Part shown: piece by piece, positions 9,067 to 45,989 of the stretch
Position numbering within the stretch: the first letter of the stretch is position 1
Layout: every line of letters starts with the position of its first letter
Source of the DNA: an uncultured Rhodobacteraceae bacterium
Lineage (GTDB): Bacteria > Pseudomonadota > Alphaproteobacteria > Rhodobacterales > Rhodobacteraceae
NCBI GenBank assembly: GCA_947502145.1
Contig: CANMYO010000006.1
Coordinates: forward strand, 11,476 to 75,475
Length of the DNA stretch: 64,000 bases
Reading direction: 5' to 3'
Made by a program: the position numbers and the translations under genes
The notes under the pieces: model-generated
The model's input: only the letters and a program-made list of their open reading frames with translations
Databases searched by the model: none
What the model was told of the DNA's origin: nothing

Positions 9067-9071
9067 ACTTC

Positions 9072-26805: not shown

Positions 26806-27696
26806 TCAATAACCTGCAGAGACAAAACAATCGCGATGATGTCCCAGGAACCGTTCTGAAGGATACAATCGCTTGTCTTGCGGGAGGTGAACCCTAGTAA
26901 GAGATGGCTCGAGCAAATGATGGAAATCTGATGGAATGCGGTTATGAGCAACAATCAACCTGAACGCCGGGTCGATCGTTATGAGGTGGCGGTCAAAGAG
27001 CCAGTGAGCTGTCGCCGATAACGCGAGCCCGTTTTGAACGACGTCGGGTCCATCGCTCTCAACGGGTTGAATATGGGCGGCTTGTACTTCGGATCGACCG
27101 CCCCCATTCACAATCCGAAGGCGCGTTACAGCACATCGATCATCATATGCTTCGCAAACGATCTTTCGAAACGACGCATCGCGCACTGCTCGATTGGTAA
27201 GCCGTTCTTCTCGCGACCTAGAAATCGCTGTGTTTTCCGCTTGAGCATCTCCTTTTGGCCACCATCTGGACGCGCCTTCCGGATCTAAGATTTCGCGAAG
27301 CCCAAGATCGACGATCGCATTGAAGTCAGCATCCTCAAGCATGCGCACGGACCGCCCACGAAGGTATATACCAACTTGAGAGACATCGCGTATCTCGCGT
27401 AGTGCCCGCTCAGCATATCCTCCGCCAGGTTTCCACGGCACAGGACTGGGGAACTGTAGATAGTCCGCGATAATCGCATAATAGAATCCATCGCTCTCTT
27501 CATCTGGCAGAATGTCGATGACTCTTGCTACGGCAAAATATGCAATGCCTTCGCCACCATCGCGAGGTCGGCGAAAAACAATCCAATCGTTTAGTGCCTT
27601 CTCTATTTGTCGCAAGTACCTCGAAGGAAAATGATAATGTGAAGCGACTTCGTCGTCGTATGCCGACCCTCGTTTTGCGTCGAGAACGATTTTCAT
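26806..27696 (-). CDS. HNH (HNH_2-type) endonuclease with an N-terminal reader-like domain
   Basis: 296 aa. C-terminal motif CAVTRLRIVNGGGRSEVQAAHIQPVESDGPDVVQNGLALSATAHWLFDRHLITIDP. N-terminal ~170 aa (YDDEVASHYHFPSRYL ... IVFRRPRDGGEGIAYFAVARV) resembles the domain commonly fused to this HNH in putative modification-dependent enzymes. Last gene of the four-gene operon, with a 13-nt gap to dcm. Confidence 0.75.
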   Translation of the reverse strand: MKIVLDAKRGSAYDDEVASHYHFPSRYLRQIEKALNDWIVFRRPRDGGEGIAYFAVARVIDILPDEESDGFYYAIIADYLQFPSPVPWKPGGGYAERALREIRDVSQVGIYLRGRSVRMLEDADFNAIVDLGLREILDPEGASRWWPKGDAQAENTAISRSREERLTNRAVRDASFRKIVCEAYDDRCAVTRLRIVNGGGRSEVQAAHIQPVESDGPDVVQNGLALSATAHWLFDRHLITIDPAFRLIVAHNRIPSDFHHLLEPSLTRVHLPQDKRLYPSERFLGHHRDCFVSAGY

Positions 27697-27709: not shown

Positions 27710-28855
27710 TCAACAACTTGACGAGCGGAAGCATCCGACGTCGAGTGTTACGAGGCTCTCTCTGATTGTTCGGCAAAGAACTTCAGCGAGCAGAACAGGA
27801 ACCGCGTTGCCTATTTGGGCACCCGTCGCCATCAATCCTCCTTCAAAATCGAACGAGTCAGGGAAAGTTTGTAGCCGGGCGGCCTGCCGAGCCGTTATTC
27901 CATGATGCTCTGTTGGGTGGACAAAACGTCCTTTGGAAGGGTTGATGCAAGCTGTCGTCATCGTAGGCGAAGGTCGACTTGGATCGACTCTTCCATATAC
28001 GTCTTTATGGCCGTTGTGCCCCTTGTGGCATGGAAGTACTCGGTTGGATTGTGCTCGTGAGCCGCCATTGGCTGGCGTGCTTTTGAACACGTCTATCAAT
28101 GCTTGTGTATGGTTCATGTGGATTGCATTTGGGTCTTCATCCCGTTCAGTTTCAACAAACGCATCCGCTGCCGTCCGCCAAGCCGGCAAACCGATCTCGT
28201 TTGCTGTTTCAGGCTTCGCATGTGTGGGACTCGGCGGCCATTCTAACTCATCAAAGCTGAACTCAGACGACATCCCCAGGATGAAGACCCTCTTTCGATT
28301 TTGAGGAACCCCAAAGTCACGAGCGTTGAGAATTACTGGGCCAATCACATGATATTGGCTTTCTTCAGCGATCGTGAGAAAGCGATCCAGATATTCTGCA
28401 TGCTTTGAGTGCAGGAGACCTGGAACATTTTCCACTAGGAAGAACTTGGGTTTAAGAGCTTTGACGAACGCAAAGTAGCGCAAAAGCAACTCGTTGCGGG
28501 GATCATTGACTCCTGCTGAGCCAAGTCGATGCGATGAGAAACCTTGGCAAGGCGGCCCTCCGAGCAGCAAATCACATTCGCCAGATATCAGCCCGCACTC
28601 GGACATAAGTTCCGCTGGACCTACTTCGCTAATGTCGTTCTCGAAGACAGCAATTCGGCGATTACTGACGTTCTGAATGTTGTTTCTGTAAGTACGGCTC
28701 GCATGTCCGTCCTTCTCAATTGCGGCCCTCAGCTCGAAACCGGCATGGATTGCTCCTAGGGAAAACCCTCCCGCTCCAGCAAATAAATCTACTGCAAACA
28801 GCGGCTTGTTGCCACTTTCTAGGGTTACATGGATATCGCTCTTCTGATCTAACAT
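27710..28855 (-). CDS. dcm: DNA (cytosine-5)-methyltransferase
   Basis: 381 aa. Motif I DLFAGAGGFSLG, motif IV GGPPCQGFS, motif VI FLVENVPGL, motif VIII QNRKRVFILG, motif X GNAVPVLL. Confidence 0.9.
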   Translation of the reverse strand: MLDQKSDIHVTLESGNKPLFAVDLFAGAGGFSLGAIHAGFELRAAIEKDGHASRTYRNNIQNVSNRRIAVFENDISEVGPAELMSECGLISGECDLLLGGPPCQGFSSHRLGSAGVNDPRNELLLRYFAFVKALKPKFFLVENVPGLLHSKHAEYLDRFLTIAEESQYHVIGPVILNARDFGVPQNRKRVFILGMSSEFSFDELEWPPSPTHAKPETANEIGLPAWRTAADAFVETERDEDPNAIHMNHTQALIDVFKSTPANGGSRAQSNRVLPCHKGHNGHKDVYGRVDPSRPSPTMTTACINPSKGRFVHPTEHHGITARQAARLQTFPDSFDFEGGLMATGAQIGNAVPVLLAEVLCRTIRESLVTLDVGCFRSSSC

Positions 28856-28880: not shown

Positions 28881-30719
28881 TTAATCGGAACCTTCAACTG
28901 GGATTTCCAGTTCGGCCTTTTCATATTCAAGGCCAATCCTGCCCAATGACCTATTCAGTCGTGCTTGTACTTCGAGAGCGTATTCGTACCGCAAATGCCC
29001 GCAAACCGTAGCAGATTTGCGGACCAAGGTGGGCTCAGCCGCTTGTCCGTCGTCGTCAGCGGCGGCATTTGACGCAACAAAACGCACCATGACCTCAGAC
29101 GTATCTCCAGCCAGTCTTCCATCATTTTCTGCATACATGGAGACCGCGGCGGGAGAGGCAGCTGGACTATCGACAACCGAAAACGCAACTGGCGTGGTCT
29201 CCCCTCCTTGTACTGCTGCGATGTTGGCGAACAGAAAACCACCTTGGGCGGGATCGTTTAACGCGGTCGCCTCCTTTGCTGCTTCAAGGGCCAAAGCATT
29301 GAATTTCTTATACCCACCTACGTTATCAGGACGACGTTCAATTCCGCGTTCACGGCCAGGAAACATGTCGCATGCGGGTGTCACGCACATCCAAAATTTG
29401 TCGTCGATCCTAAATATGTGGCCAAGCTCAAGATGACTGCTTCGAACGGGTTTGCTGCCCTTGAAGGCGTTGTGACCCATACGTGCCTTCATCAGCTCTT
29501 TGTCGTCGCGGAGATCGATCTCGAACCTTTCTTTCACGGCATTCAAAGGAACCGCATCAGCATCCAACGCGGCAATCCTTGCGGCGTATGCTCCGACCTC
29601 CGGAACAATATGATCCAGGAGCTGTTCTGCATGATTTCGCGCTATTCGCTCAACCGTGACAGCGGCGTCTTGAGAATTCGCGGAAAGAACCCCGTGATAC
29701 CAGGCCGCTCCCACTTGCCTGTCCCCAAGAGCATCATCCTGAACCTCGACACCCCGTTTGTTCATCTCTGCTCTGAGCTTTGTCAAAACAAGGCGGGACG
29801 GAAGTGGTTTCCAAGCTTCCAGCGCCTCAAGAAGCACCGGCAACAGTGGCTCTTTGCTCTTCCTCTTGAACGCGATAAAGCCTTGATCGCAGCGTATCCA
29901 AAAAGGCTCTCCTGCGCTCCAATCTCTTAATCCAATATCGTCGCTAGAAAAACGGTCTTCATTGTCCGCTTCGAATGTGGAAAGCAGTTCTTGGAACAAA
30001 GCCCGCCAGTGCTTTCGATGGAGATCTTCATTCTCCAAAAAGCTCGATAAATCACCCCAAGGCGCCTCACCCTTAATCAAACGCCTGAATGCGTTCGCAG
30101 ACCTCCGAGCATCCAAGTACTGTGGGACATCAAACCGATCTCGAAGGGCGTCGGCTTTCGTTTCCAGAATTGCTTCGACCTCATCCGCCAAATCGTTGGT
30201 TGCTTCGGCAGTGTCTTCGATAAGTGATGAGCAAGGCTGGAGAAGGCCCAAGGCGAAATGGCCAAACACAGCGTCGAGCTCTTTTTCCGTGTGGACGAGG
30301 ATAAGGTTGAAATGCCTATTGGTTAGCGCCCCTCGAGCAATCGCCAATGCGGCCTTACCAACGTTGGGACCTGTCTCGAGTTCATAGTCCAGAACGAGCA
30401 AGTCAGTTTGTTGAAGGCGGTGAACTTCGGCGAGGTCCTGCTTTTCCGGCGGCTGGCTTCCGTCATGTACGTCAAGCAGATAAGGTCCGTCTGGCTGGCG
30501 GAATTCGCCAAGAACTCTTCCTACAGCCTCCGGGTCTCTAGCCCAGGCTTTGGCGGTTTTGACCAATAACGCTCCATCCGCGTCAACGCTGGCGGACGCC
30601 GCCCCCAATATCTCATCCACTGTGGGATACTGATCGTCAACGATCAAAACTGACCGGATCGGCTCAATGAACGCCTCTCTAATCAATGCTCCGTAACTAA
30701 TGGGTAATTCTGCTGTCAT
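28881..30719 (-). CDS. Atypical receiver (REC)-like domain protein with an uncharacterised ~450-aa C-terminal region
   Basis: 612 aa. The N-terminal ~150 aa have REC-like landmarks: VLIVDDQ (acidic pair), DLLVLDYEL (candidate phospho-acceptor Asp) and NLILVHTE (Thr). Its ATG overlaps the upstream gene's TGA (ATGA at 30716-30719). Confidence 0.6.
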   Translation of the reverse strand: MTAELPISYGALIREAFIEPIRSVLIVDDQYPTVDEILGAASASVDADGALLVKTAKAWARDPEAVGRVLGEFRQPDGPYLLDVHDGSQPPEKQDLAEVHRLQQTDLLVLDYELETGPNVGKAALAIARGALTNRHFNLILVHTEKELDAVFGHFALGLLQPCSSLIEDTAEATNDLADEVEAILETKADALRDRFDVPQYLDARRSANAFRRLIKGEAPWGDLSSFLENEDLHRKHWRALFQELLSTFEADNEDRFSSDDIGLRDWSAGEPFWIRCDQGFIAFKRKSKEPLLPVLLEALEAWKPLPSRLVLTKLRAEMNKRGVEVQDDALGDRQVGAAWYHGVLSANSQDAAVTVERIARNHAEQLLDHIVPEVGAYAARIAALDADAVPLNAVKERFEIDLRDDKELMKARMGHNAFKGSKPVRSSHLELGHIFRIDDKFWMCVTPACDMFPGRERGIERRPDNVGGYKKFNALALEAAKEATALNDPAQGGFLFANIAAVQGGETTPVAFSVVDSPAASPAAVSMYAENDGRLAGDTSEVMVRFVASNAAADDDGQAAEPTLVRKSATVCGHLRYEYALEVQARLNRSLGRIGLEYEKAELEIPVEGSD

Positions 30720-33703
30720 TGATCTTGTGTCTCTAAACCACGGAATTCGATAAGAAATGTTGCGCCTTTCAAGGGCACATCGTCGTCCTCTGTCCGATAG
30801 CGTATCAAGTGCCCGCCAGCAGCCAAGTTCGCTCTAGCAAGGTAAAGCCCAACGCCACGGCCCGAACGCTGTTTGCGTGTAAAAAACAGGTCAAAAATTT
30901 GCTCAGTTTCTTCAGCATCCACACCAGGCCCTGTATCAGAAACGGCAACTAGGTCTCCGACGAGATCCAGTTGTATCCGCCGGTCGGCAGGTGGTTGGGT
31001 AGCAGTCCAGTAAATACTGTTGTTTACAAGATTCAAAAACACCGGGAAAACGCGGGATGGCCTTTCGAAGACCCTAGCGGCGCGGAACTCTTTGGAAGCG
31101 GCGAACGAGATGCCCGCACGCGCAAAGGATGGGGCAAAAAATTGCTCGACAAACGATGCGATTTCTTCTCCAGATATCCACTTCTGCACTTTCTCACCAG
31201 ACAGGCGCATTGGTGAAAGAAAGCGCAGCTGGTCTGTGAGACCTTCCACTCCCAGGCGTATGTCGTTCACGGCCCGATGGTCCTGGACCTCAGCTGGTAA
31301 CCGTCGCAAACCTTGAGAGATCATTTCTTCAAAATCAGCTAGGTCGTGAGCGGCGATCTCAACTGCGATACCCAGTTGTGCTAGTGAGTTAAGGCGCTCT
31401 ACTTCTCTGTTCGCTTCGCCAAGTTCTCTCATACGGACACTTGCCAGTGTCTGGAGGTCAATCCGTTCCTGGACCGCTTCGAGCGCAGATTGATAAAGAC
31501 CAAAGGCAGCTCGGTTTTCTTTCGACCAGTCTTCTTCACGACGAGAAACACCCTCAAGCGCTTCTTCAAACGTTAAAAGCTCTGCTGAAAAACGCCGCGC
31601 GACATCGTTGAGCTCATCTTGAAACGCGTCCATTCGCGTTTCTGCCAGCTCGCGCACCGTCTTGTTTTGGTCACGTTGAAGGTTCTCAACGTTTGTTCGC
31701 AGTTCACCTATGCGTTTTCGCATCGAGGATATGGCCGCATCGGTGCGCTCTCGCAGGATGTCTTCCGGTTTATCTGGAATGGCCGTTTCGATCGCAGACC
31801 TCAGCGTTGCCTCATATCCAGAAATTGCGGCTGCGGCTTCCCTTGTTCGCTTTTGAACCTCATCAAAGCGCGTTGCCCAACGTCCACTTGGGGTTGACCT
31901 GGCGCGCACCAGCGCCTCCTCGTATCGCCTACGCATCTCGGCGAGTCGCGCTTCTTCGCGAACAATGCTAGGACCGGAAGTAACGTCGAGATCACCGGTT
32001 GCTTCTTCCACTTCGTCGATAAGACCCGGCAACATCTTTTCTGCACGCTCAACCTCGGCCCTGAAGGTTCGACGTTCTCGATCACGCAGTTTCTTCTCGC
32101 CTTCGGCTGCATTGGCGGATCGATTGTCCTCTTGAATCTGTGGAAGACGTTCTTTGCGAAGCTTTGAAGCGGATCCGAAGAAACGTCGTGCCGCTGTTTC
32201 GAGCACGTTGATAACTAACTCTCGAAAAACACGGGATGCAGCATTGTCGATAACACCTTCGCGCCCAGCTTTATCCTTCAAGTTAGGGTTACCCTTTCGC
32301 GTCAAGGCAATGCGACCAAACATTCGGCGGTGGTTCCAGAAATGCCTGCCCGCGTTTTTTGACCGGCGTTTCTCAATCTCATAGAAGTCGTTGTCTTCTC
32401 TGCCATAAGGAAGCACTCGTAGCCCATCACGAAAGATCATTAGGCCGCCGTAGTCCGAAGCCAGATCTTGATATGCTTTGTGCTGCCCTGTTGGATGCGT
32501 CGAGCTCTTGTCCTCCCACTCCATGGTCGCGATGAATAGTTCGAAACTACCCACCCTGCTGTTGGTCCGATTTGGTACCTTGAGTTCTGCGGGTGGTTCG
32601 AAAACTACAACTTCGTCAATCGAATTTCCGAAGGCCCGTACGCGGCCCCTGAATACGCCATTCTCATCTACGGTCCCTTCAATCTGGTGTTCCAGACCAG
32701 ACACCCTAGCTCGATCTATTCCACGCTCCGCGCCGACGATCAGCCGTGGGGTTCGATCCAAGTCCCTAGTGTCGACAACGTCAGCTCTATAATCAAACTC
32801 TGGCTTTGCTTGTCCTTCTGCATATGGATCGACAAAGCTGGCCAACGTCTGCTCAAAACGATCGCGCGCGCTTTGCGCCGCAATATCAGTGTCCTTCGGT
32901 CTGCCCAGTGCTTGTAGAGCCTCGTCTACTTCACTTACCAACAGTGCCGTCCCAAAACCGGACCATTCTTCCAGGTGTTCAATCGTAAACGGCAACCGCT
33001 TGAGCGCTTCGAGTGTTCTCGCAGAAGGGGCAAGGCCCGGCTCGTCGGAGCGATCTTTCGTCCAATCATCATCAAACCTCTTCCACACATCTAGCAGTAC
33101 GGGCTTTTTTTCACGCCAACTGGCTAAATCCTTTTGCGCGACTAATCCGGCTGCAAGCTTGTCCGACATATCATCCAAAGCCGCAAAAACATCCTCGATC
33201 TGCTCAAACTCACCAGCTGCTACAGGAACATCGTCCAAATCGATGTATGGATTTTCGAACAACCGCCAATCCAAAAGCGCAGCAATCAGGAAACCATCTC
33301 GGCGGCGAGACAGCATTAAGAGAATAGGGCCAAGTTTGGCGCTAGAAAGGCGGCCAATTCCCTTCTGACCTTGCTTTGGTCTAACTGGTAGACCATTGCG
33401 GTCTTCTTTCGGGACCGGCAGATTGAACGAAGTTTTGCTTTCTGTTCCTATTACCAACCACTTTTCAAACAAGTCGTCCAAGGACATGCCATGTCCGTCA
33501 TCCGCCAGGAGGGTCACAGCCGCATCGCTTGAGTAGACACGCAAAGTAACTTTGCGGGCATAGGCATCCCAGGAATTTTTCCAAAGCTCTGAGACCGCCG
33601 TCGGACTGTCAGCGATTTGCTCACGTCCAAGGTGATCAACCGTTCGCGCTCGCGTACGAAATTTTCTAGTCTCTAAAGACCTTGGAATAGCGGTGTCACT
33701 CAT
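30716..33703 (-). CDS. Fusion of an N-terminal MORC/Hsp90-like GHKL ATPase, a coiled-coil linker and a C-terminal histidine-kinase core (DHp + CA)
   Basis: Tracked ORF 30716..33730 starts at TTG; ATG at 33703 preferred. N-terminal Bergerat motifs are SELWKNSWDA (N box), DDGHGM (G1) and GQKGIGRLS (G2). Residues ~540-800 are Arg/Glu-rich helical. An H-box-like VEIAAHDLADF is followed by a second ATPase with LNLVNNSIYW (N), SDTGPGV (G1) and GRGVGLYLA (G2). Confidence 0.7.
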   Translation of the reverse strand: MSDTAIPRSLETRKFRTRARTVDHLGREQIADSPTAVSELWKNSWDAYARKVTLRVYSSDAAVTLLADDGHGMSLDDLFEKWLVIGTESKTSFNLPVPKEDRNGLPVRPKQGQKGIGRLSSAKLGPILLMLSRRRDGFLIAALLDWRLFENPYIDLDDVPVAAGEFEQIEDVFAALDDMSDKLAAGLVAQKDLASWREKKPVLLDVWKRFDDDWTKDRSDEPGLAPSARTLEALKRLPFTIEHLEEWSGFGTALLVSEVDEALQALGRPKDTDIAAQSARDRFEQTLASFVDPYAEGQAKPEFDYRADVVDTRDLDRTPRLIVGAERGIDRARVSGLEHQIEGTVDENGVFRGRVRAFGNSIDEVVVFEPPAELKVPNRTNSRVGSFELFIATMEWEDKSSTHPTGQHKAYQDLASDYGGLMIFRDGLRVLPYGREDNDFYEIEKRRSKNAGRHFWNHRRMFGRIALTRKGNPNLKDKAGREGVIDNAASRVFRELVINVLETAARRFFGSASKLRKERLPQIQEDNRSANAAEGEKKLRDRERRTFRAEVERAEKMLPGLIDEVEEATGDLDVTSGPSIVREEARLAEMRRRYEEALVRARSTPSGRWATRFDEVQKRTREAAAAISGYEATLRSAIETAIPDKPEDILRERTDAAISSMRKRIGELRTNVENLQRDQNKTVRELAETRMDAFQDELNDVARRFSAELLTFEEALEGVSRREEDWSKENRAAFGLYQSALEAVQERIDLQTLASVRMRELGEANREVERLNSLAQLGIAVEIAAHDLADFEEMISQGLRRLPAEVQDHRAVNDIRLGVEGLTDQLRFLSPMRLSGEKVQKWISGEEIASFVEQFFAPSFARAGISFAASKEFRAARVFERPSRVFPVFLNLVNNSIYWTATQPPADRRIQLDLVGDLVAVSDTGPGVDAEETEQIFDLFFTRKQRSGRGVGLYLARANLAAGGHLIRYRTEDDDVPLKGATFLIEFRGLETQDQ

Positions 33704-33805
33704 AAGTCCACGCACCCCCGGCTTGTGCAATGGCGGTGCATGAGACCGCGTGCGAACACTCGTAGTGAGGGAGCATCGCAGTCTCCAAAGTGGTTTGCCT
33801 CACCG

Positions 33806-34027
33806 TCAATCATTATCGCTCGAGTCCCGTCCACGCCGATCAACTAAATCCTCATCTTCAACGTCTATTCCGTAAGCGCGGAGGGCACGAAGTACAGACA
33901 TCCGAATGGTCTCACCATCTTGGGCCGCTCGAACGCGCAAGGATGTTCGAACTCTCTCCGGTACTTCGATTTGCAGCGCTACGTCACGGTGGGGCATCAC
34001 TAACTCTTCGCTTAGGTTCGCTAGCAT
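33806..34027 (-). CDS. Ribbon-helix-helix (CopG/Arc/ParG-like) small DNA-binding protein
   Basis: The tracked ORF starts at TTG 34054; ATG at 34027 gives MLANLSEELVMPHRDVALQIEVPERVRTSLRVRAAQDGETIRMSVLRALRAYG, which has a beta-alpha-alpha layout. An 8-bp inverted repeat GGTTTCTT/AAGAAACC (34038-34060) lies immediately upstream. Confidence 0.5.
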   Translation of the reverse strand: MLANLSEELVMPHRDVALQIEVPERVRTSLRVRAAQDGETIRMSVLRALRAYGIDVEDEDLVDRRGRDSSDND

Positions 34028-34473: not shown

Positions 34474-35022
34474 TCAGCCCACCCAATCTATAATGCCGTG
34501 ATCATTAAATGCGCTCTCGTGAAGCGTTTCGACTTTGTCGCAGAAGACGACCAGGTTCTGCGTATCTGATCGGGCAGATGGAACAATCAACCCATCAAAG
34601 TCCAAGAAATGAGCAACCTCGCCGATCTCTTGTGTTCTAGGATACTCGTCATTCTTTTGCTGATAAGACAATCGGCCAAAGGTATCCGTCTTCAAGCCAA
34701 CTTCGCCGAGCGCGGCCAGGTCCAGAAACTGGAGTGCGCGCTCGAGCGCTAGGTCAACTTGGAACATCCGGTATTTGACACGGCTTGGTATGACGGGTTG
34801 GCCGCGCATTAGGTGGAAGCGCATTTCTTCGAGAGCACCCATCTGTGACATCGACGTGTAGAGCACATCGAAGCTGCCGTCATCCCACCGACCACCGGAA
34901 GCGCTGCATTGCAATGGATCTCTCCCATCGCGCACCAACCTCCAGACAGGACCGGAGAAAGCCACGGGCTCGATTGCTTCAAGAGCGTCAATAAGAGCGT
35001 TGTCGCGCCGGGCTTTGATCAT
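34474..35022 (-). CDS. RES-domain toxin (MbcT/ParT family)
   Basis: 182 aa. The R-E-S landmarks are GGRW, YTS...GALEE and LIVPSARS. Confidence 0.8.
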   Translation of the reverse strand: MIKARRDNALIDALEAIEPVAFSGPVWRLVRDGRDPLQCSASGGRWDDGSFDVLYTSMSQMGALEEMRFHLMRGQPVIPSRVKYRMFQVDLALERALQFLDLAALGEVGLKTDTFGRLSYQQKNDEYPRTQEIGEVAHFLDFDGLIVPSARSDTQNLVVFCDKVETLHESAFNDHGIIDWVG

Positions 35023-35030: not shown

Positions 35031-35369
35031 CTATACGAAGACATCGTTGTCGAGACGATCAATTACCGCCAAGACTTCGAGACTACGGTCATTATGGATC
35101 AAATCCATTGCACGTTCACCACCAAGCTGAGGATGTCTTGCATAAAGCCACGCACGCACTTCTTCAGGAGCATAGTACTCGTTGAGGCGACCAACGATGT
35201 AATAGAGATCTGAAAGGATGAGTTCATTGCGCGGCTGGGGTTTAAAATCGCCAGCTTTCCAACGGGAGACAGTTGCCTTGGACACATCAGTTATGTTGGC
35301 AATGTCGGTCCCTTTCAGACCCCCGATTTCGGCAAGTTCGCCAATGTATCTTGTTACAGCACTTTGCAT
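35031..35369 (-). CDS. Xre-type antitoxin with C-terminal DUF2384 (MbcA/ParS family)
   Basis: 112 aa. HTH GTDIANITDVSKATVSRWKAG, then WLYARHPQLGGERAMDLI. 8-nt gap to the RES gene. Confidence 0.8.
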   Translation of the reverse strand: MQSAVTRYIGELAEIGGLKGTDIANITDVSKATVSRWKAGDFKPQPRNELILSDLYYIVGRLNEYYAPEEVRAWLYARHPQLGGERAMDLIHNDRSLEVLAVIDRLDNDVFV

Positions 35370-35374: not shown

Positions 35375-36709
35375 TTACCTTTGGTCGCCAAGCAGCGATG
35401 GTTGCGCGATGTTAAGATCGCAGGCCCGCGCACGAGGCGACTCTGTTCCGCGCTCCTCATGGAGTTTTTCAAGGGCATCCGCAACCTTGCCCATGGTTTC
35501 TGCATGTGTTCGCGTGCGTTTTAGCAAGCTTTCCAAATCCACGTCTGCGGCGAGGGCCTGCGCCTCGGTTGGCTTCAAAAAACTGATGTCCTTCGCGCGA
35601 CGCTCCGCCGGCGCAACCGTCTTCGACAAGAAATGGCCGGCTCTATTTAGGTCCGGAACATCATCTAGCGCCGATTGTGAGCGCGCGATGTGGAGCGCTT
35701 GAACTTGCTTTCGGGTCCTTACCATCTCGTCAATGCTGGGTGCGCTCACATGTTCGCTTTGCAACAGTAGCTTGCGCCCTCCCCTCGCCCGCGCCAAAAG
35801 CTCGAACTCATGAGCCCGAAATCCTCTCCCCAATCCGGGAACCTGAACGATGCGCGGTCGACCAAACTTAGCATCCGGATCGCGCTCTTCAGGTGGTTTG
35901 TGCCAATCACGTGCGTTGAACTGATCAAGTTCAAGAATGCCGCCTGCCGCCCCTGAAGCAACACCAAAAGCCTCTGCCGCTTCGGCGTTCAAGCCAGAGC
36001 AATAGTCAAGAATGATGGGTTTGCCCAAATTATGCAGCCCGCCCAACATCCGGATGAGCGTCCGGACTTTCTGAGGACCCGGATCTTTACCGAGCCCAGA
36101 CAAGCGCATCCACAAGGCATCAATTGGTAGGTTGGATAACGTTTCAACAAGTGCTTTTCGGGAGGTCGAGTCGATCAAGCCTTGAACGGTTTGCATTACG
36201 GGATAGTCGATCTGGATATGTTTGCCGCCTAGGGTGTCCAACGCACGGCGCAATCTGGTGCAAGAAGCGGCATCAACAGAAAGCCAGCCGTCAAAACGCC
36301 GATCACCGAGGAAATGCGTGGGCGCTAGAATGCGATCTGCGCCAAGCTTGATGGCTGTTTCAGCTATGCGCTCGATGGTGTTTCCATTGAAATCAGAAGG
36401 TCCAAGCGGCTTGTCCGGTACGTCTACGAGCCAATCCGCATGACGCACAAATGTTCCAAACCGTGCGAGGCTGGATAGCTCGGCAGCGCCTGTATCGAGC
36501 GTAATTTCAACATTTTCGCTTTTGAGCTGCGTCGCAAGTCCGCTTTGACGCTTGAGACGCCCTGCTTCAAAGACGACCCGTGTCAGGGGCAGATGTCCTG
36601 AAGCATGCATTTCTCCGAATTTCACATGTGAATCGCCGATACGGAAGAACTGCGCCAGCGGCGTGCGGAGCTTCTGACCTTTTGGAAATGGGACGACAAC
36701 TGTGTTCAT
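35375..36709 (-). CDS. Uncharacterised 444-aa protein co-transcribed with the Xre-RES pair
   Basis: Long clean ORF with an ATG start. Its stop (35375-35377) is 5 nt from the Xre start codon. No family motif recognised by eye. Alternating beta/alpha-like composition over ~300 aa, then a helical Arg/Glu-rich tail. Confidence 0.6.
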   Translation of the reverse strand: MNTVVVPFPKGQKLRTPLAQFFRIGDSHVKFGEMHASGHLPLTRVVFEAGRLKRQSGLATQLKSENVEITLDTGAAELSSLARFGTFVRHADWLVDVPDKPLGPSDFNGNTIERIAETAIKLGADRILAPTHFLGDRRFDGWLSVDAASCTRLRRALDTLGGKHIQIDYPVMQTVQGLIDSTSRKALVETLSNLPIDALWMRLSGLGKDPGPQKVRTLIRMLGGLHNLGKPIILDYCSGLNAEAAEAFGVASGAAGGILELDQFNARDWHKPPEERDPDAKFGRPRIVQVPGLGRGFRAHEFELLARARGGRKLLLQSEHVSAPSIDEMVRTRKQVQALHIARSQSALDDVPDLNRAGHFLSKTVAPAERRAKDISFLKPTEAQALAADVDLESLLKRTRTHAETMGKVADALEKLHEERGTESPRARACDLNIAQPSLLGDQR

Positions 36710-37315
36710 CTGACTTGTTCCATATGTGTTTCATAGATGCAGATAGTGAAACCGAAGTGGAATGTCAATCTTTGCAACAATAGGTTGGCCCCCCAGCGCC
36801 TCTTGCGCTGACCAGGCTCTCGGCTGCGCCCGAAGCCGCCCAAAACGCGTCTTCGCCCATGCGGGATTCAATCCTTCGTGCATTTGGCATCTGAGAACAC
36901 GGGCAGGACCGCGCTCGTTTGAATCAGACGTCAGCCAAGTCTCCGCTCCGCTCTAACCAGGCTGGCAGCTTCCTATTGTGAATATCCGCCTGCCATCCGA
37001 CCGGCGCCCTGAACAGGGGCTCAGGTGCCGCTTACGCGTCAGCCTTCACGCAGAATTCCGGTTCCTCCCGCGCTCCGGCGCGGGTCCCTCCCAAATTCAA
37101 CGCTCCGGCCCCCAGTGTCAGGCCGCCGTTCGGCCGCAGGTCGGGCTGTGCCCTCTCCTGCTCTGCCCTTCGGAAGACGCGGGGGTCTTCCAAACGTCAG
37201 AGACAGGGAGGCCTTCGCCCAATGGCGGAAAGCAAGGCCAAGCCGCAGACCACAACTTGAGGTCGGCAAAACGAGCCAAGCACCGCTCCAACCACGAAGG
37301 AAAGGAGCCTCAAAC

Positions 37316-37684
37316 ATGGGCCTCGACCAATACGCATACATCAAGACCGCCGATAGCGGCGAAGAAGGCGAAAGCGCCAAGTTCACATGGCGAAAGCACT
37401 CTCAACTGCAAACTTTTATGGAAGGCCTCTACACTGAGCGCACGGGGCTAGATGCTACTGACCTCAACTGTGGTGAGTTGGTGCTGCAAGCGTCCGACAT
37501 CGACAGCTTGGAAAAGGCCGTCAAAGACAGCGCTCTGCCCCATTGCGAGGGCGGCTTTTTCTACGGGCATCAGTTCCAAGACGAACAAGCCAGTGAATAT
37601 CGCGACTACGATCTCGAGTTCTGCGCATGGGCACGGACCCAGATGCAAGCAGGATCGACCGTGATCTATTCCTGCTGGTGGTAG
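37316..37684 (+). CDS. Conserved plasmid/phage hypothetical protein (122 aa)
   Basis: ATG at 37316 preceded by AAGGAAAGGAG. The tracked 37025 start adds a Pro/Arg-rich non-coding-looking extension. Sequence MGLDQYAYIKT ... IYSCWW. Confidence 0.6.
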   Translation: MGLDQYAYIKTADSGEEGESAKFTWRKHSQLQTFMEGLYTERTGLDATDLNCGELVLQASDIDSLEKAVKDSALPHCEGGFFYGHQFQDEQASEYRDYDLEFCAWARTQMQAGSTVIYSCWW

Positions 37685-37808
37685 CCAGCGCCGCAGAGGC
37701 GCGTCAGCGCGCCTCTGCGGTCCGTTCCCCATAATTCCACTCAAATGACCGCCCCACGCCTTCTCAGGCGCGCTGAGCGGCTCCACAAGACATCAAAGGA
37801 CGAATCTC

Positions 37809-39674
37809 ATGACCAAACAGCAACCCATCACCCAAAACACCGCCAGCGCCGTGATCCAGCAAATCCCGTTGGACGCGCTGTCCATCTCTGATTTGAACCC
37901 ACGCACAACGGTTTCAGAGGCGCATATCGAAAGCCTCGCCGACAGCATCGAGCGCTTTGGCCTCATTCATAACCTTGCAGGCTTCATGGATGCGGACGGT
38001 AATGTCGGCATCGTTGCTGGTGGGTGCCGTCTTCGCGCCCTTGAACGGATTGCAGAGCGTTCCAAAAACCATTCCTTCGAAACTGTGCCTGTAAAGCTGG
38101 CCTCCAGCGCCGAAGAGGCCGAAGATTGGGCCAGCGCCGAAAACGCGGTCCGTGAAGACATGGCCCCAGCGGACGAAATCCGCGCCTTTGGCCGAATGAA
38201 GGCCCGCAATGCAACGGTGCCGGAGATTGCACTCGCGTTTGCCGTTACAGAGGCGCGCGTTTATCAACGGCTGGCGCTTGCGGGTCTGCCAGACGCTGTG
38301 TTGGACGCGCTCGCGGCGAGTGAGATTGGCCTGGGTACTGCCAAAGCGTTCACACTTTCCGATGATGAAGCACTCACCCTGAGCCTCTTGGATCAAGTTA
38401 AGGGGCAAGCCGTGTCGGAGGCGGCGATCAAAAACGCGCTACATCCCGATGCCATAAAGGCCAGTGATCGTCGTGCGAAGTTCGTGGGCGTTGAGAGATA
38501 CGAAGCCGAAGGTGGCAGTGTTACTCGTGACCTCTTCTCCGACGAAGTCTTCCTCGCCTCCCCTGCCCTTCTGGAACGTCTCTTCGGTGAGGCGCTGGAC
38601 ACGGCCCGCAATGAACTGGTCGAAGCGCAAGGCTGGGCTTGGGCCGAAGCGCGCACCGAGGCGTGGCTCAACTACTATGATCTCGATCAGATGAAACTGG
38701 AACGGGTCTATCCAATTGAGGGCGAACTGACCGAAGCAGAAGCCGAGGAATACGACGCACTCGCGGACCTCGCCAATGGCGGCGTCTTGGACGAAGATGG
38801 CGAGGCTCGGTTGTCCGAGTTGCAAACCATTCTGGACGGCGACTACTCAGCAGATCAGAAGGCCCATGCGGGATGCATTCTGCTTGTAAATTCATCTGGC
38901 AAAGTCGAAGTGACGGCGGGTTTGGTGCGCCACGATGACAAGAAGGCGGCGATCGAAGCAGGAATCTTGAAACCCCCGCAAAGCACAAAGTCCGATGTGC
39001 CGAAATCTCCTTACTCGCAGAAACTGACGGCAGACATGCAAGCCATCCGTCTGGCATCCGTGCAGGCCGCAATCCTGACGAAGCCCGAACTTGTCCTTGA
39101 TCTTTTGGGATTTGGGTTGTCCGACGCCTCTGGCAGTTTTGAGCGTATCTTTGGTATGCGTATGGATCGCCCAAACAACGCTCCGAGCATCGAAGATGGC
39201 TTTGAAGCGGAACCACGTTTGAACCATGGGATCGATGCAAGCGAGTATTGGCAGCAAGGGACCCGCGTTGAAGACCTCTGCGCTGCCTTTGCCACCTATC
39301 GCGACGGCTCCAAGAAGTCGCGTAACGTCACAATCACGGAAGCCATTGCGCGCACCCTGCCCTATCAGGCTGGCGGTCAAGAATTCTTCGCGCTCATTGA
39401 GACAGAGGCGGGTGCCGATATCCGCAGGCACTGGACGCCCACTGCACAGAACTTCTTTTCGCGCGTGTCAGCAGGCTATCCTGTTGAATTAATGTGTGAA
39501 TTCTTGGAGTGCAGCGCCAATGATGAACGCTTGACCGCCTTTGCCAAACTCAAGAAAGGCGAAAAGGCCGAGAAGATGGAAAACCTGATGACGAATGCAA
39601 CGACGCAAAAGCTGATGGGGCTGACGGCAGATCAAAAAGCCAAACTCGACAAATGGGTGCCTGACTGCACCTAA
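37809..39674 (+). CDS. ParB/Srx-like nuclease-domain protein (large conjugative-element ParB-like protein)
   Basis: 621 aa. N-terminal ParB box region (IPLDALSISDLNPR ... LADSIERFGLIHNL ... IVAGGCRLRAL), then a long C-terminal extension as seen in ICE/plasmid leading-region ParB-like proteins. Confidence 0.75.
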   Translation: MTKQQPITQNTASAVIQQIPLDALSISDLNPRTTVSEAHIESLADSIERFGLIHNLAGFMDADGNVGIVAGGCRLRALERIAERSKNHSFETVPVKLASSAEEAEDWASAENAVREDMAPADEIRAFGRMKARNATVPEIALAFAVTEARVYQRLALAGLPDAVLDALAASEIGLGTAKAFTLSDDEALTLSLLDQVKGQAVSEAAIKNALHPDAIKASDRRAKFVGVERYEAEGGSVTRDLFSDEVFLASPALLERLFGEALDTARNELVEAQGWAWAEARTEAWLNYYDLDQMKLERVYPIEGELTEAEAEEYDALADLANGGVLDEDGEARLSELQTILDGDYSADQKAHAGCILLVNSSGKVEVTAGLVRHDDKKAAIEAGILKPPQSTKSDVPKSPYSQKLTADMQAIRLASVQAAILTKPELVLDLLGFGLSDASGSFERIFGMRMDRPNNAPSIEDGFEAEPRLNHGIDASEYWQQGTRVEDLCAAFATYRDGSKKSRNVTITEAIARTLPYQAGGQEFFALIETEAGADIRRHWTPTAQNFFSRVSAGYPVELMCEFLECSANDERLTAFAKLKKGEKAEKMENLMTNATTQKLMGLTADQKAKLDKWVPDCT

Positions 39675-39700
39675 CGGCTCCTTCGTGGGAAGGATCAACT

Positions 39701-39730
39701 GGTCCCGCTTCGGCGGGGCCTTTTTTGTGG
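39701..39730 (+). terminator. Rho-independent terminator after the ParB-like gene
   Basis: GGTCCCGC-TTCG-GCGGGGCC (one G-U pair) followed by TTTTTTGTGG. Confidence 0.75.
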
Positions 39731-40044
39731 CTGGTTGGAGGTTCTGTTGAAAATCTCAAAATTGTCCGGCGGCGGGGCAAGAGGACAAGCCCCCTGCCCT
39801 GCCACCGGACCGGCGCTGTCCGCGCGGGAGCATCGTGTGAACGATGCATGTCGATCTCAGTTTATTGCTGACCTGTATCTTGACGATCACGATATGAAAC
39901 CCGATGTTAGTGTTGGCCTTCCGCACAGGCCTGTGTGTCCGCGACCCAAAGCTATGCAGTGCTTTAATTCTTTTTCACCGTTCCCTTCGAAGCGGATCGA
40001 TTAGTAGCGGGCACCTAGTCAGATCCGGAATTTGGAATGGATCA

Positions 40045-40782
40045 ATGGCACTAGACCAGCAAATCAAAGACCTTAAGAAACTCGCAAAGAAAATTGCGAG
40101 GTCGAAACGCATCGAACATCACGATGCGCTCAATATCGTGGCGCAAGAGCTCGGACATACCCATTGGTATTCAGCAATGACGGCTTGCAAGAACGGTTGG
40201 CTTCCGACACCTGACGACTTTGCCAAAGTCGGAGACCTTCTCAAGCAGGCTCATCCTGATGAAACCGTCGAGATGTTTGGCGACCCTGGTGGAGAAAGTC
40301 AGGGGCAGATAGGGCCACATGACTATTCTATCGAAGTCTCCATGGACGAAGTCTTCGTTCGTGGACGAGGTTGGATGGTTCATGTGCCTGAGGCACCATC
40401 CAAAGAACCTTGTGTTCGCGTGACCGATAAGCGCTTCAAAATGAACCCGATCCACGATCCTGGTTTCGTCACGCGTGCACTAGAAATTGCGAATACCAAG
40501 GCGGAACAGGTGCGAGCGCGGATTGCTTCGGATTGGCCGAGACGGTCCACAATGCCAGATGCAAATGGCTTCGCGGTTCATCCGATCAATGGCAGTTCGA
40601 GCGACACATGGTTCTGTTTGCATTGCGATGAAAGACTGCCAGCCAAATCTGTCGCTGAAAATCTTTGGCACTGCCCTCACTGTAGTGCTTCACCGATGGA
40701 TATCTTCAGTTCTGCGTGGTGGCTCGAGGATGCATCAGATGAACATGCTGGTTCTGTCCATAGAAGCCGTCTGAAAGGGTAG
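40045..40782 (+). CDS. Hypothetical protein with a C-terminal zinc ribbon
   Basis: Start at MALDQQIKDLKK (40045). C-terminal CLHCDERL...HCPHC. The tracked 39904 start looks like a non-coding extension. Confidence 0.5.
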   Translation: MALDQQIKDLKKLAKKIARSKRIEHHDALNIVAQELGHTHWYSAMTACKNGWLPTPDDFAKVGDLLKQAHPDETVEMFGDPGGESQGQIGPHDYSIEVSMDEVFVRGRGWMVHVPEAPSKEPCVRVTDKRFKMNPIHDPGFVTRALEIANTKAEQVRARIASDWPRRSTMPDANGFAVHPINGSSSDTWFCLHCDERLPAKSVAENLWHCPHCSASPMDIFSSAWWLEDASDEHAGSVHRSRLKG

Positions 40783-41197
40783 GCACGAATGAGGCCGGTG
40801 GTGTTTTACCATCGGCCTCTTCCTTGCGAGCTCAGATCTATGGCGTCGGCGGTACACTGACGGCCTCAGTTTTTCATTTTATAGGCTTAAGAGCGGTGCC
40901 CTACGTTCAGCGCCAAAGCCTCACATGATATCTGCCTTGGGACTCAATGCCGGAGTTCGAAGTTGCTGCGTGGTCCGATTTGCACCTTGCGTCGGAGTTG
41001 CAAAAAAATGTTGGTCGCAGAGGCCGACCCGAACACAAAGGGCGTTTGCCAGAATTGTCCCCTGCCCTTTGGGCATTCCTCGCGCGGCAAAATTCTGTCC
41101 CCCTGCCCTTCTCCGCTTAGCTGCGCCGATGGTGTGTTCGGCTCTTAGGCCTCTGCAAGGTGACCATCATTGCAACACCAACCAAAGGAGCAAAGCA

Positions 41198-41533
41198 ATG
41201 ACCACCAACTGCATCAAATTCGAAAGCACCGACATCGAGACCGCCAAAGGGTCCGGCTCAATTTCAACTCTGACCTTCGATCTCGATATCACCGTGGAGC
41301 CCATCATCAGCGACAACCCTATGGCACCGACGCACCGCGTCCTTGGCCGTTCACCACGTGGTCGCCTCGTTGAGTGTGGCGGCATCTGGAAGAAACAAAA
41401 CCGCGACACCGGCGCAGATTACTTTTCGATGACGGTCCGGGACTATGCGTTCAATGCAAACCTTGGCAAAGCCGCGAACCAAGATGATGATACGTTGCAA
41501 GCGATCATCCCTTGGGGTCCTAAGGAGGTTTAG
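41198..41533 (+). CDS. DUF736 family protein
   Basis: ATG 41198 after AAAGGAG. GSISTLTFDLDITVEPI ... THRVLG ... ECGGIWKKQNRDTGADYFSMTV matches the DUF736 pattern as I recall it. Confidence 0.7.
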   Translation: MTTNCIKFESTDIETAKGSGSISTLTFDLDITVEPIISDNPMAPTHRVLGRSPRGRLVECGGIWKKQNRDTGADYFSMTVRDYAFNANLGKAANQDDDTLQAIIPWGPKEV

Positions 41534-41541
41534 TAGGCCCA

Positions 41542-41580
41542 GTTGCTGGCCGGTTCTCCGGCCAGCAACACTTACATTTT
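41542..41580 (+). terminator. Stem-loop after the DUF736 gene (terminator; alternatively a partition or operator site)
   Basis: Perfect 12-bp arms GTTGCTGGCCGG (41542-41553) and CCGGCCAGCAAC (41558-41569) with loop TTCT, then ACTTACATTTT. Confidence 0.5.
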
Positions 41581-41606
41581 GGCATTTTGCACGCGTGCAA
41601 AATGCC
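41581..41606. promoter_or_regulatory. Perfect 26-bp palindrome upstream of repA (candidate RepA/RepB operator or parS)
   Basis: GGCATTTTGCACG|CGTGCAAAATGCC, 158 bp upstream of the repA ATG. Confidence 0.45.
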
Positions 41607-41763
41607 AGAGGTCATTGCCAAACGTTGTTCACTTTTTCTATTAGTATGGTCCATATTGTGCGTCAGATATCGGGTAGGCGTACAATATCTATACAAAACC
41701 TTCAAAACCGTGCTATTAACTTGCGGAATCGGTTCCATAAGAGAATCGAATGAGGACGGTGTT

Positions 41764-43119
41764 ATGAGCGGCAGCATAGAACAATTTCTTCAGGAGCTTG
41801 AGCGAGGCCTTGGCCGGACCATGGTTTCGGTGAACAAGGAACTTACAATGCGAGAGCGCATCAAGCGCTCTTGGTCAATGCGCCAATGCGCACGCTTCCT
41901 CGATATCAGCCATCAGCATCTGACAAAGTTTGCCAAGGACAATGAAGATTTCCCGGCGGGCAAACATGTTGGTCGTGAACGTGTCTTCACGCTCACTGAA
42001 CTGATGCATATCCGCGCACTTATGGCAGCCTCTGCCAAACGGCCGGAGCACTTCTTAGCATGGCGCAAGCCAGACGACCCTTTGCCGGTTATCTCCTTTG
42101 CGAGCCAGAAAGGTGGAACTGCGAAATCATTGAGCGCGGCTCACTTTGCGCAGTACTTGAGCCTCAACTATGGAATGCGGGTTGGTGTCATGGATGCTGA
42201 CCCACAAAGTACAATTACGCTCTACTTTGTTGGCGGCGAAGAGATGCCGACTTTGCCCGACCCCGAAACACCAACAATGGTCGATTTTGCCGGGTTGTTT
42301 CAAACGGATGAAACTATCCCTTACACAGACTATGACGCTGGGACTTTAGACGGGTTCTTCAAGAAAACATCGTGGCCAGGCGTAAGGCTGGTTCCTGCAC
42401 ATGGTGAGACTTCTGAAGGCGAGATCCAAATTGCCCGTCTTTTACGTGCCGGGACGCCTGAGAAACGGTTCTATAGGTTTTTGCGAGACTCCATTGATCG
42501 CTGGAAAGAAGGCCATCTTCCCGTCACGCGACCAAATGAGCTGGTGAGAGACAATAGAGTCGATCGATCGAAGTTGGATCAGGCTCTAAACGAGACGTTA
42601 GACTGCATAATCATTGATTATCAGCCTGCCTTGACGCTCTTCCAGCTAAACAACGTGATGGCGTCTACATCACTGATTATTCCTCAGACGATGAAGGGCT
42701 TTGACATCGCAACGTTGTCGACCTTCGTAACCGGTCTACTAACAATGTTGCGCCATATTTTTGCGACTGATCGTATCGATATGGGCGGTGCGGCGCATAT
42801 GCTCCTTCCGACTATCGTACAGCGCACAAATGAACAGGACCTCACGCAAGTTGGAAACTTGCTTGAAAACTGTCCGGATGAGGTTCTCCCCGTCTTCTAT
42901 TTGCGCTCCGATGCAATCTCAAATGCTTCGGATGTTTATCAATCTGTCTATGAATACGAGCCAGATACTCCGGGCAAGAAGAAGGGTATCAACCGTTTCA
43001 TAGAAAACGCAGATGCCGTGAACGACGCCATTGTTTCTCGTTTGTGGCCGGGTCTAGAGCGTGGTTATGCGGATGCGTGGATGAAGAATTTCTATGATTT
43101 TGAGGAGGAAACTGAATGA
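41764..43119 (+). CDS. repA: Partition ATPase RepA (ParA family) of a repABC cassette
   Basis: Start MSGSIEQF (41764) after GAGGA. N-terminal HTH region (MRQCARFLDISHQHLTKF) and deviant Walker A FASQKGGTAKSLSA. Followed by repB and repC. Confidence 0.85.
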   Translation: MSGSIEQFLQELERGLGRTMVSVNKELTMRERIKRSWSMRQCARFLDISHQHLTKFAKDNEDFPAGKHVGRERVFTLTELMHIRALMAASAKRPEHFLAWRKPDDPLPVISFASQKGGTAKSLSAAHFAQYLSLNYGMRVGVMDADPQSTITLYFVGGEEMPTLPDPETPTMVDFAGLFQTDETIPYTDYDAGTLDGFFKKTSWPGVRLVPAHGETSEGEIQIARLLRAGTPEKRFYRFLRDSIDRWKEGHLPVTRPNELVRDNRVDRSKLDQALNETLDCIIIDYQPALTLFQLNNVMASTSLIIPQTMKGFDIATLSTFVTGLLTMLRHIFATDRIDMGGAAHMLLPTIVQRTNEQDLTQVGNLLENCPDEVLPVFYLRSDAISNASDVYQSVYEYEPDTPGKKKGINRFIENADAVNDAIVSRLWPGLERGYADAWMKNFYDFEEETE

Positions 43120-44153: not shown

Positions 44154-44233
44154 GAGGCAGGAGCCGCGAAGACGGTGCTCTTCGATCCCAAACGAGGCAA
44201 GAAACAGGATCATGTATGAAGTGATTTAACGGC

Positions 44234-44300
44234 AAAAGAAAAGCCCTCCACCTTGCGGTAAGAGAGCCATTCTATCTGTGTTGCAACTGATAGTTAGCAC
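44234..44300 (-). ncRNA. Candidate antisense counter-transcribed RNA (ctRNA) of the repB-repC spacer
   Basis: On the minus strand, GCUCUCUUACC-GCAA-GGUGGAGGGC (44243-44268; several G-U pairs that work only on this strand) is followed by UUUUCUUUU (44234-44242). A ctRNA in this spacer is the established repABC arrangement. The 5' end is not determined. Confidence 0.4.
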
Positions 44301-44387
44301 TCCACGCAAATCGTTGTCAACGAAACACCGATTCGGTGAACGGATTTCTTTTGTCTCCAATCAAGCAGAGGAGGCGAAGAAGGACTC

Positions 44388-45689: not shown

Positions 45690-45989
45690 TATCCACGGCT
45701 TTGCTGGACAGTGAATCTGCGGCACTGGTTGAAGATGGACCGGAGCTAGTCAAGAGGACGCCCGAGGGCTATGCGATCGATCATAGGGCAGGGGAAGGAG
45801 CGAAGCCTCAGTCAGTCATACATTTCTAGGATGGAGTTACTAAGCCGGAGTATAATTCTTCTTATATATCTTAGATCGGAGTTTTGGCGGATTTAAGACG
45901 GAAAGCCTTGATTTTTTGAAGGCTACGCCTTATGCCGGACAAAAGTCCGCTTTAACAACTATAAATCGGAACAAAATCCGATGTAAATC

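Follow-up and report, generated by a model that had tools for sequence, protein, structure and literature searches.

A kinase-like protein with two ATPase modules and its receiver-domain partner

Our study examined a 64,000-nt stretch of DNA from an uncultured Rhodobacteraceae bacterium (contig CANMYO010000006.1 of assembly GCA_947502145.1, positions 11,476 to 75,475), referred to as a whole as the window, in which a histidine kinase-like (HK-like) gene, a response regulator-like (RR-like) gene and a C5 DNA cytosine methyltransferase gene follow one another on the minus strand. The HK-like gene (30716..33703, minus strand) encodes 995 aa from its ATG at 33703; the strand is open over 30716..33730, and there is an in-frame TTG at 33730. 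A sequence-only reading of this DNA had proposed that the single polypeptide carries two Bergerat-fold ATPase modules of different flavour, and the domain searches bore this out. Pfam placed HATPase_c_3 at aa 35–146 (E 3.1e-14; 53.6 bits, cut-off 25) and HATPase_c at aa 882–987 (E 1.7e-14; 54.7 bits, cut-off 26.4), and the domain matches of the protein are far beyond chance. This confirmed a layout of HATPase_c_3, mid-domain, helical linker, DHp domain (HEF_HK) and HATPase_c. The seven motif strings quoted in the sequence-only reading were all located, and in the order given there: ELWKNSWDA (aa 39–47), DDGHGM (aa 68–73) and GQKGIGRLS (aa 112–120) in the front half, and VEIAAHDLADF (aa 781–791), NLVNNSIYW (aa 891–899), DTGPGV (aa 923–928) and GRGVGLYLA (aa 948–956) in the rear half. 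The AlphaFold2 (AF2) model of the protein (pLDDT 76.6) consists of a GHKL fold (aa 11–166), a helical insert (aa 169–300), a beta-rich domain (aa 304–470), six long helices (aa 487–747), a DHp hairpin (aa 761–827) and a catalytic (CA) domain (aa 841–986). By NCBIfam, the N-terminus resembles MutL and the N-termini of BbrUII/HgiDII restriction endonucleases, and the C-terminus resembles those of many sensor kinases.

The N-terminal GHKL (Bergerat) ATPase (33206..33673, minus strand), delimited by HATPase_c_3 and the AF2 model, contains E39/N43/D46 as motif I, D68-G-H-G72 as motif II and G112-QKGIG-117 as motif III. Judged from these residues it is predicted to be of the hydrolase (MutL/paraMORC) flavour, with the catalytic Glu present, and MutL was also matched weakly in a profile search. 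The earlier description of this module as MORC-like is best taken to mean the paraMORC/MutL type of GHKL ATPase, and probably not MORC proper. The ATP-binding motifs I–III are present and invariant, no Pfam S5/MORC domain was matched when the whole protein and the mid-region were scanned, and by its sequence the protein appears to be of the paraMORC/MutL type. The mid-region (aa 169–486; 32246..33199, minus strand) was defined by AF2 secondary structure, invariant columns and Foldseek; Pfam gave no match to it when it was searched alone. It includes the most conserved block of the whole protein, aa 420–486 (RVLPYGR..NDF..E..RR...FWNHR...NLKDKAGREG). A Foldseek comparison with viral structures (BFVD) aligned the HK-like model with Topo II, Hsp83 and RIIA over 490–580 columns, which gives the N-terminal half the look of an ATPase of the GHKL-plus-transducer type. 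On the modelled fold, the mid-region is probably the transducer-like second half of this ATPase, with an invariant lysine, K478.

The ATPase half is joined to the kinase core by an Arg/Glu-rich linker (aa 487–747; 31463..32245, minus strand), in which secondary structure assignment of the AF2 model by DSSP gave six long helices, in agreement with the helical stretch expected from the sequence. Arginine makes up 14.9 % and glutamate 14.6 % of its residues (29.5 % together). The H-box-like region that follows proved to be a real DHp domain, a helical hairpin at aa 761–827 (31223..31423, minus strand). The Pfam family HEF_HK, a DHp family, matched aa 776–833 with E 1.6e-4 and 22.5 bits, just below the cut-off of 24.1. 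A profile built from 51 homologues matched the DHp and CA domains of ThkA (3a0r_A) over profile positions 753–953 (E 1.4e-10), and Foldseek aligned the AF2 model with the cytoplasmic cores of CpxA and HK853 over ~240 columns (E ~4e-9). The candidate phospho-acceptor is His786 (codon 31346–31348), whose acidic neighbour makes an H-D pair in this protein. Single-sequence alignment to the Protein Data Bank (PDB) did not cover His786 itself, so its assignment rests on HEF_HK, on the agreement with known kinases in profile and fold, and on its invariance among homologues. The kinase-type CA domain (aa 841–986; 30746..31183, minus strand) was supported by HATPase_c and by PDB histidine-kinase matches, and has its N box at N891/N895, its G1 box at D923-x-G-x-G927 and its G2 box at G948-x-G-x-G952. 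As had been read from the sequence, the protein has no transmembrane (TM) segment (maximum 19-residue Kyte–Doolittle score 1.07) and no PAS, GAF or TPR domain was matched by Pfam.

The stop codon of the HK-like gene overlaps the ATG of the RR-like gene (28881..30719, minus strand) as ATGA, and the two genes are translationally coupled. The RR-like protein (612 aa; AF2 pLDDT 86.7) matches Response_reg_2 with E 2.5e-12 and 47.8 bits (cut-off 27), and contains no TM-like segment. Its receiver domain spans aa 21–290, with D28, D29, D111, T144 and K287 as key residues; in the AF2 model these five residues lie at the ends of beta1, beta3, beta4 and beta5, and a helical insertion of ~120 aa precedes beta5. 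A helical region (aa 292–421) leads to a beta-rich, family-specific C-terminal domain (aa 425–597; 28929..29447, minus strand), which we regard as the putative output or effector domain. Residues W443, P448, C450 and R594 of this domain are invariant, D451 is found in 79/80 proteins, and its sequence features include the TPxC450-D451 motif and LRYEYAL...RIGL. Position 477 (K477) is not conserved and is Ala in the window protein.

Searches for a known counterpart of this domain were negative. Pfam at E≤1 on 66 members of the RR-like family found the receiver and no known output or nuclease domain, a PDB profile search gave no match, and whole-chain Foldseek of the RR-like protein against the PDB returned solely flavodoxin- or receiver-like folds, with a best E of 0.24. 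A profile of the C-terminal domain searched against 1.84e9 representatives matched 614 clusters (50 % identity), of which the best 150 were all proteins of the same architecture or shorter. As no other architecture occurs among those 150 best matches, the domain is not a promiscuous effector module. Assignments to PD-(D/E)xK, HNH, GIY-YIG, sortase, clan-CD protease and YkuD were rejected on motif comparison for misfits in spacing or conservation, of which the variable position 477 is an example.

The third gene of the module encodes a 381-aa C5 DNA cytosine methyltransferase (27710..28855, minus strand; DNA_methylase, E 9.4e-62).

Conservation and linkage of the three genes

Relatives of the HK-like protein are numerous. 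More than 2,000 proteins scored in the search, the best 120 of which align over 96 % or more of its length, and homologues at 43–47 % identity and 98–99 % query coverage carry PF19191. At least 185 GTDB species representatives contain relatives, drawn from the Proteobacteria, Desulfobacterota, Chlorobiota, Bacteroidota, Verrucomicrobiota and Acidobacteriota. Residue conservation was assessed in 81 species-level homologues of 38–54 % identity. The motif residues of the N-terminal ATPase are kept in 80–81 of these 81 species, with E39, N43, D46, D68, G70 and G72 100 % conserved, and K478 is present in all of them. His786 is likewise present in 81/81 and is always followed by an acidic residue, E in 70 and D in the others; in the CA domain, the N-, G1- and G2-box residues are invariant, and receiver residues D28, D29, D111 and K287, together with T or S at position 144, are 100 % conserved. 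Invariance at this level of overall divergence indicates that both ATP sites and the His–Asp pair are under selection.

Synteny and flanking genes were surveyed in 80 related loci, one to a species. In 79 of them the next gene downstream of the HK-like gene, mostly overlapping it, is the RR-like gene, and ~75 have a C5 methylase gene as the immediate neighbour of the HK/RR pair. The order methylase–HK–RR is the commonest, and the clade of the window has HK–RR–methylase. Clustering of all flanking open reading frames (ORFs) recovered Vsr in 36/80 loci, integrases in 10 and other genes sporadically; beyond Vsr there was no fourth conserved module gene, and no helicase was conserved. The module is patchily distributed and occurs on plasmids and genomic islands with integrase and toxin–antitoxin (TA) genes nearby. 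On Rhizobium plasmid H1 a Vsr gene adjoins it, and in Pantoea it stands alone amid transporter and housekeeping genes. We are confident that the HK-like, RR-like and C5 methylase genes form a self-contained, horizontally mobile three-gene operon, which in the window is extended by an HNH nuclease gene.

A compact sister family was also found, with a Dcm methylase, a dual-GHKL kinase of 732–742 aa and a regulator of 340–370 aa in the Dcm–HK–RR order that is also seen in the long family (L083 4986-9439; L085 2323-7110; L086 2554-7113). Its hosts include Campylobacter conjugative plasmids and the chromosomes of Flavobacteriia and others, and at one locus the compact module is alone between dnaE and thioredoxin genes. 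The compact ATPase half is homologous to that of the long family (hhalign 99.5 %, aa 15–488), and the compact regulator's C-terminal domain has the TPxCD core of the long one (hhalign 92.5 %, E 5e-7). The Campylobacter compact pair did not match PF19191 or PF19192. In L085 an HTH_26 gene, read as controller-like, stands in front of the methylase gene.

A shorter relative was seen in Escherichia coli 1639/77, by prophage CP-1639 (L084 2738-6332). This is a group 2 protein of 614 aa with HEF_HK and HATPase_c, which lacks the N-terminal ATPase and is paired with a Response_reg_2 protein. The annotation describes the stretch as the remnant of an integrative element and lists no methylase in the part of it shown.

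In the window, a 296-aa HNH_2 endonuclease gene (26806..27696, minus strand; E 4.1e-11) begins 13 nt after the methylase gene. Its homologues adjoin the module in three of the 80 other loci (L002, L046 and L055; 4/81 when the window is counted), and the gene is accessory, outside the conserved core. By NCBIfam, the protein reached 75.5 bits against the model of a phosphorothioate-DNA restriction enzyme (NF045808), which is sub-threshold and covers the HNH half only; the first 160 aa have no assignment. The enzyme may be either the cognate nuclease of the methylase or an independent, modification-dependent one. Some 100 nt upstream of the HK-like gene is a small ORF of 73 aa (33806..34027, minus strand), ribbon-helix-helix (RHH)-like, with a weak FitA-like match (E 0.066). 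A homologue of this ORF lies directly upstream of the methylase–HK–RR module in L055 (6604-6849), which also has the HNH homologue, and the ORF may encode a controller for this sub-type of module, or an antitoxin. Immediately upstream of the module is a RES–Xre TA pair, formed by a RES-domain toxin gene (34474-35022, minus strand; E 2.5e-21) and an adjoining gene for an Xre/MbcA/ParS-type antitoxin (35031-35369, minus strand; E 6.4e-5). A 444-aa ORF at 35375-36709 had no Pfam match.

Further out, positions ~36800-48900 of the window are ~77 % identical to the repABC regions for replication and partition on Rhodobacteraceae plasmids, with ParB/RepB, RepC, RepA and a HipA toxin among the annotated plasmid matches. 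Positions ~7600-9560 match, at 86 % identity, a transposase of the ISNCY family that several plasmids of Roseovarius and Leisingera carry. From its sequence, the window is probably part of an 85-kb roseobacter-type repABC plasmid.

Relation to the published family and to known systems

The sequence-only reading had regarded the combination of a MORC-like module with a complete kinase core as unusual. Our comparison refutes this, as the same architecture accounts for 174/222 proteins of a published Pfam family and corresponds for the most part to a common, annotated class of sensor kinases, the PF19191/PF19192 family, and as relatives are numerous (more than 2,000 scoring proteins and at least 185 species, as described above). 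PF19191 (HEF_HK) and PF19192 (Response_reg_2) derive from the work of Bellieny-Rabelo, Pretorius & Moleleki 2021 (PMC8011034), in which group 1 (HATPase_c_3, HEF_HK and HATPase_c) predominates with those 174/222 proteins. That study put the linkage with a Response_reg_2 gene at 91.6 %, found the neighbourhoods enriched in C5 methylases, Vsr and HNH_2, and reported an association with restriction–modification (R-M) systems. It further described the proteins as soluble and as descended from paraMORC ATPases, grouped the family with these and not with MORC proper, and had already proposed HATPase_c_3 at the sensor position. Its cautious reading was that the pair is a regulatory two-component system (TCS), for which nucleoside triphosphate (NTP) levels were the suggested cue (PMC8011034). 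It was Iyer et al. 2008 (PMC2292703) who introduced the concept of paraMORCs and their association with R-M systems, and R.EcoUTORF4938P, a REBASE putative restriction endonuclease with the same combination of an N-terminal GHKL and a C-terminal histidine-kinase domain as the window protein, was described by Orlowski & Bujnicki 2008 (PMC2441816). The architecture, the receiver partner, the methylase context and the idea of the sensor are thus already published, and as a feature of sequence the locus is not new in kind.

The window protein is almost certainly a group 1 member of the HEF_HK/Response_reg_2 family, as all of the defining features are observed in the window, namely a soluble protein with two HATPase domains, a His followed by an acidic residue, a Response_reg_2 neighbour and a C5 methylase neighbour. 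It differs from the family in that the HEF_HK score of its clade is just sub-threshold, and in its HK–RR–methylase order, compared with the commoner methylase–HK–RR elsewhere; no functional difference is evident.

Among restriction enzymes, R.HgiDII and BbrUII (NF050001), like the paraMORC proteins, share with the window an N-terminal MutL/paraMORC GHKL ATPase and a 5-methylcytosine (m5C) methyltransferase partner. The NF050001 model scored 54.9 bits, against a cut-off of 550, and aligned aa 20–120 with profile positions 8–102 of 659. The HK-like protein was therefore rejected as an enzyme of the BbrUII/HgiDII type, since the full-length match failed and ~100 aa of the ATPase were all that aligned. 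In contrast to HgiDII and BbrUII, the window module has a kinase core and a receiver partner, and no nuclease domain was identified.

The C-terminal half compares with class I HisKA kinases such as HK853, CpxA and ThkA, with which it shares a DHp hairpin with H-[ED], the N, G1 and G2 boxes of a CA domain and a receiver gene immediately downstream. It departs from them in having a hydrolase-type GHKL ATPase and mid-domain at the sensor position, with no TM, PAS, HAMP or GAF domain, and in a receiver that has the ~120-aa insertion and an output domain without a known match. A T or N at H+4 constitutes the HisKA phosphatase motif, and, unlike HisKA, the window DHp has neither at this position (AAHDLAD). 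On these residues, the C-terminus of the HK-like protein is expected to function as in class I histidine kinases, and the N-terminus as in GHL ATPases.

Phosphorelay has a precedent in bacterial immunity in Detocs (DtcABC), a His–Asp anti-phage system with a receiver-domain effector. Detocs combines a sensor of the TPR type with a buffer receiver and an effector that is a PNP-type ATP nucleosidase, and is not known to include a methylase. A PADLOC 2.0 scan of the window proteins gave neither a Detocs model nor a match to the RR-like protein; its matches were limited to the generic REase_II N-terminal model (8.7e-9) and methylase models. No named defence system or enzyme was recovered by PADLOC and NCBIfam, which returned only generic N-terminal GHKL and kinase matches. 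Pgl/BREX type 2 is a kinase-containing functional analogue. Two further systems resemble the window module and show that immunity can be under GHKL control gated by DNA or ATP. In CapK/CapS, a DNA-activated kinase controls immunity, and CapK resembles anti-sigma-factor kinases (Chambers et al. 2026, PMC13373217); it differs from the window protein in being a Ser/Thr-type kinase with a STAS substrate, and not part of a His–Asp relay. VcSduA/paraMORC3, a GHKL-regulated Shedu, requires both its GHKL ATPase and the nuclease of the same protein for anti-phage defence (PMC12137116), but has a recognizable PD-(D/E)xK nuclease and no kinase core.

Possible functions of the module

The conserved, mobile three-gene unit, in which both ATP sites and the His–Asp pair are kept, is most economically explained as a methylation-linked defence or addiction module. 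Our tentative interpretation of the sequences is that the His–Asp phosphorelay would serve such a module as its restriction arm. An R-M-like role is favoured by analogy with GHKL restriction endonucleases paired with m5C methylases (HgiDII and BbrUII, with N-terminal similarity of 54.9 bits), by the REBASE listing of a relative as a putative restriction endonuclease and the published R-M association, by the compact family, with its identical gene order and homologous ATPase half and TPxCD domain, and by the controller-like HTH_26 gene of L085. The sequence-only reading had suggested that the MORC-like module is itself the sensor, for example of DNA or nucleic-acid ends. A sensor role of the module and DNA-related sensing are plausible, because the receiver gene is coupled to the HK-like gene, because a C5 methylase shares the operon in the window and in ~75/80 related loci and because the N-terminal half resembles DNA-acting GHKL-plus-transducer ATPases.

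The module might work in the following way, which we offer as a possibility. It would act as an R-M-like, methylation-linked system of defence or addiction, with self DNA marked by the methylase. The HK-like protein would dimerize, and its N-terminal MutL/paraMORC ATPase and mid-domain would use ATP binding and hydrolysis to engage DNA without the mark. A conformational change would then travel via the ~260-aa helical linker to the DHp–CA core, which would autophosphorylate at His786 and pass the phosphoryl group to Asp111 of the RR-like receiver. Phosphorylation would release or activate the RR-like C-terminal domain (Cys450–Asp451, Arg594), which would execute the response. The domain anatomy, the conservation of residues, the gene linkage and the lack of another conserved gene are observed, and from these we infer the DNA sensing, phosphotransfer, effector activity and defence phenotype. 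A wider proposal, which we consider rather speculative, is that the three genes by themselves form a new class of methylation-based immune or addiction system with a His–Asp phosphorelay for its restriction arm, in which a paraMORC/MutL clamp would read methylation or foreign DNA and drive a kinase, and the receiver would unleash a new effector fold. In the same speculative terms, the effector would be built around the Cys–Asp/Arg site, and the class would come in two sizes, ~1000 plus 600 aa and ~740 plus 370 aa, across many phyla.

Several observations weigh against the interpretation as a methylation-linked defence or addiction module. No nuclease or other known effector domain was found in the HK-like and RR-like proteins by Pfam, PADLOC, NCBIfam, PDB sequence searches or Foldseek, the module is not catalogued as a defence system in PADLOC 2.0, and a literature search for an experimental study of the HEF_HK/Response_reg_2 family found none. 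Confidence in the AF2 model of the HK-like protein is low at aa 434–454 and 742–787. Three intact HK/RR pairs (L033, L021 and L073) have no adjacent methylase, which is awkward for a restriction arm that is lethal and strictly protected against by methylation. In Brevundimonas sp. MYb52 (L033 6491-12718), there is no methylase within 8 kb of the intact pair, which abuts a gene for an AspBHI-like restriction enzyme (RE_AspBHI_N and Mrr_cat), presumably methyl-dependent.

The best-surviving alternative is that the pair is an ordinary regulatory TCS, which senses an intracellular cue and, as an elaborate controller or epigenetic switch, governs how the neighbouring methylase or R-M genes are transcribed. 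This is the cautious reading of PMC8011034, and it would account for the intact phosphotransfer residues. The helical region of the RR-like protein (aa 292–421), whose role is unassigned, would leave room for it, and R-M systems do use dedicated regulators, which the HTH_26 gene upstream in L085 and the RHH-like ORF upstream in the window call to mind. Yet these controller-like genes, where present, are additional to the HK/RR pair, and neither the 66 RR-like proteins nor the fold search revealed a helix-turn-helix (HTH) or other DNA-binding output domain. The cassette is also self-contained, with the single methylase as its sole target in most loci, for which ~1,600 aa of conserved, mobile protein would be a heavy cost. 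We therefore consider a purely regulatory role unlikely.

We regard as improbable a second alternative, in which the module is a methylation-associated repair device whose MutL-like ATPase, Dcm and Vsr handle the T:G mismatches that arise from deamination of 5-methylcytosine, with the kinase and receiver tuning the process. The MutL-like motif I of the N-terminal ATPase and the weak MutL matches fit such a device, as does Vsr next to the module in 36/80 loci and on Rhizobium plasmid H1. MutL stimulates Vsr in E. coli, which also counts in its favour. However, Vsr accompanies C5 methylases generally, and is absent from the window and from 44/80 loci, while the patchy spread on plasmids and islands with integrases and TA genes is what one expects of conflict systems and not of repair. 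Similarly improbable is a restriction complex that is heteromeric and ATP-dependent and uses no phosphorelay, in which the kinase and receiver would be scaffolds for dimerization and docking or a second ATPase and the nuclease would lie in aa 300–486, for although REBASE treats a relative as an R gene, the block at aa 420–486 is the most conserved and has many invariant D, E, H, K and R residues, and the C-termini of HgiDII-type GHKL restriction endonucleases are likewise unassigned (PMC2441816), the invariant His with its acidic neighbour, the CA boxes and the receiver residue set are hard to explain without phosphoryl chemistry.

In summary, the family to which the module of this Rhodobacteraceae bacterium belongs matters because it is very widespread, is carried on plasmids and genomic islands and is absent from the PADLOC catalogue. 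If the interpretation of the His–Asp phosphorelay as a methylation-linked restriction arm is true, the module would be the first restriction-like system to be gated by two-component signalling. It would also provide a direct example of a MORC/MutL-type ATPase serving as the input of a kinase, and the RR-like protein's C-terminal domain would bring a new effector domain to light.

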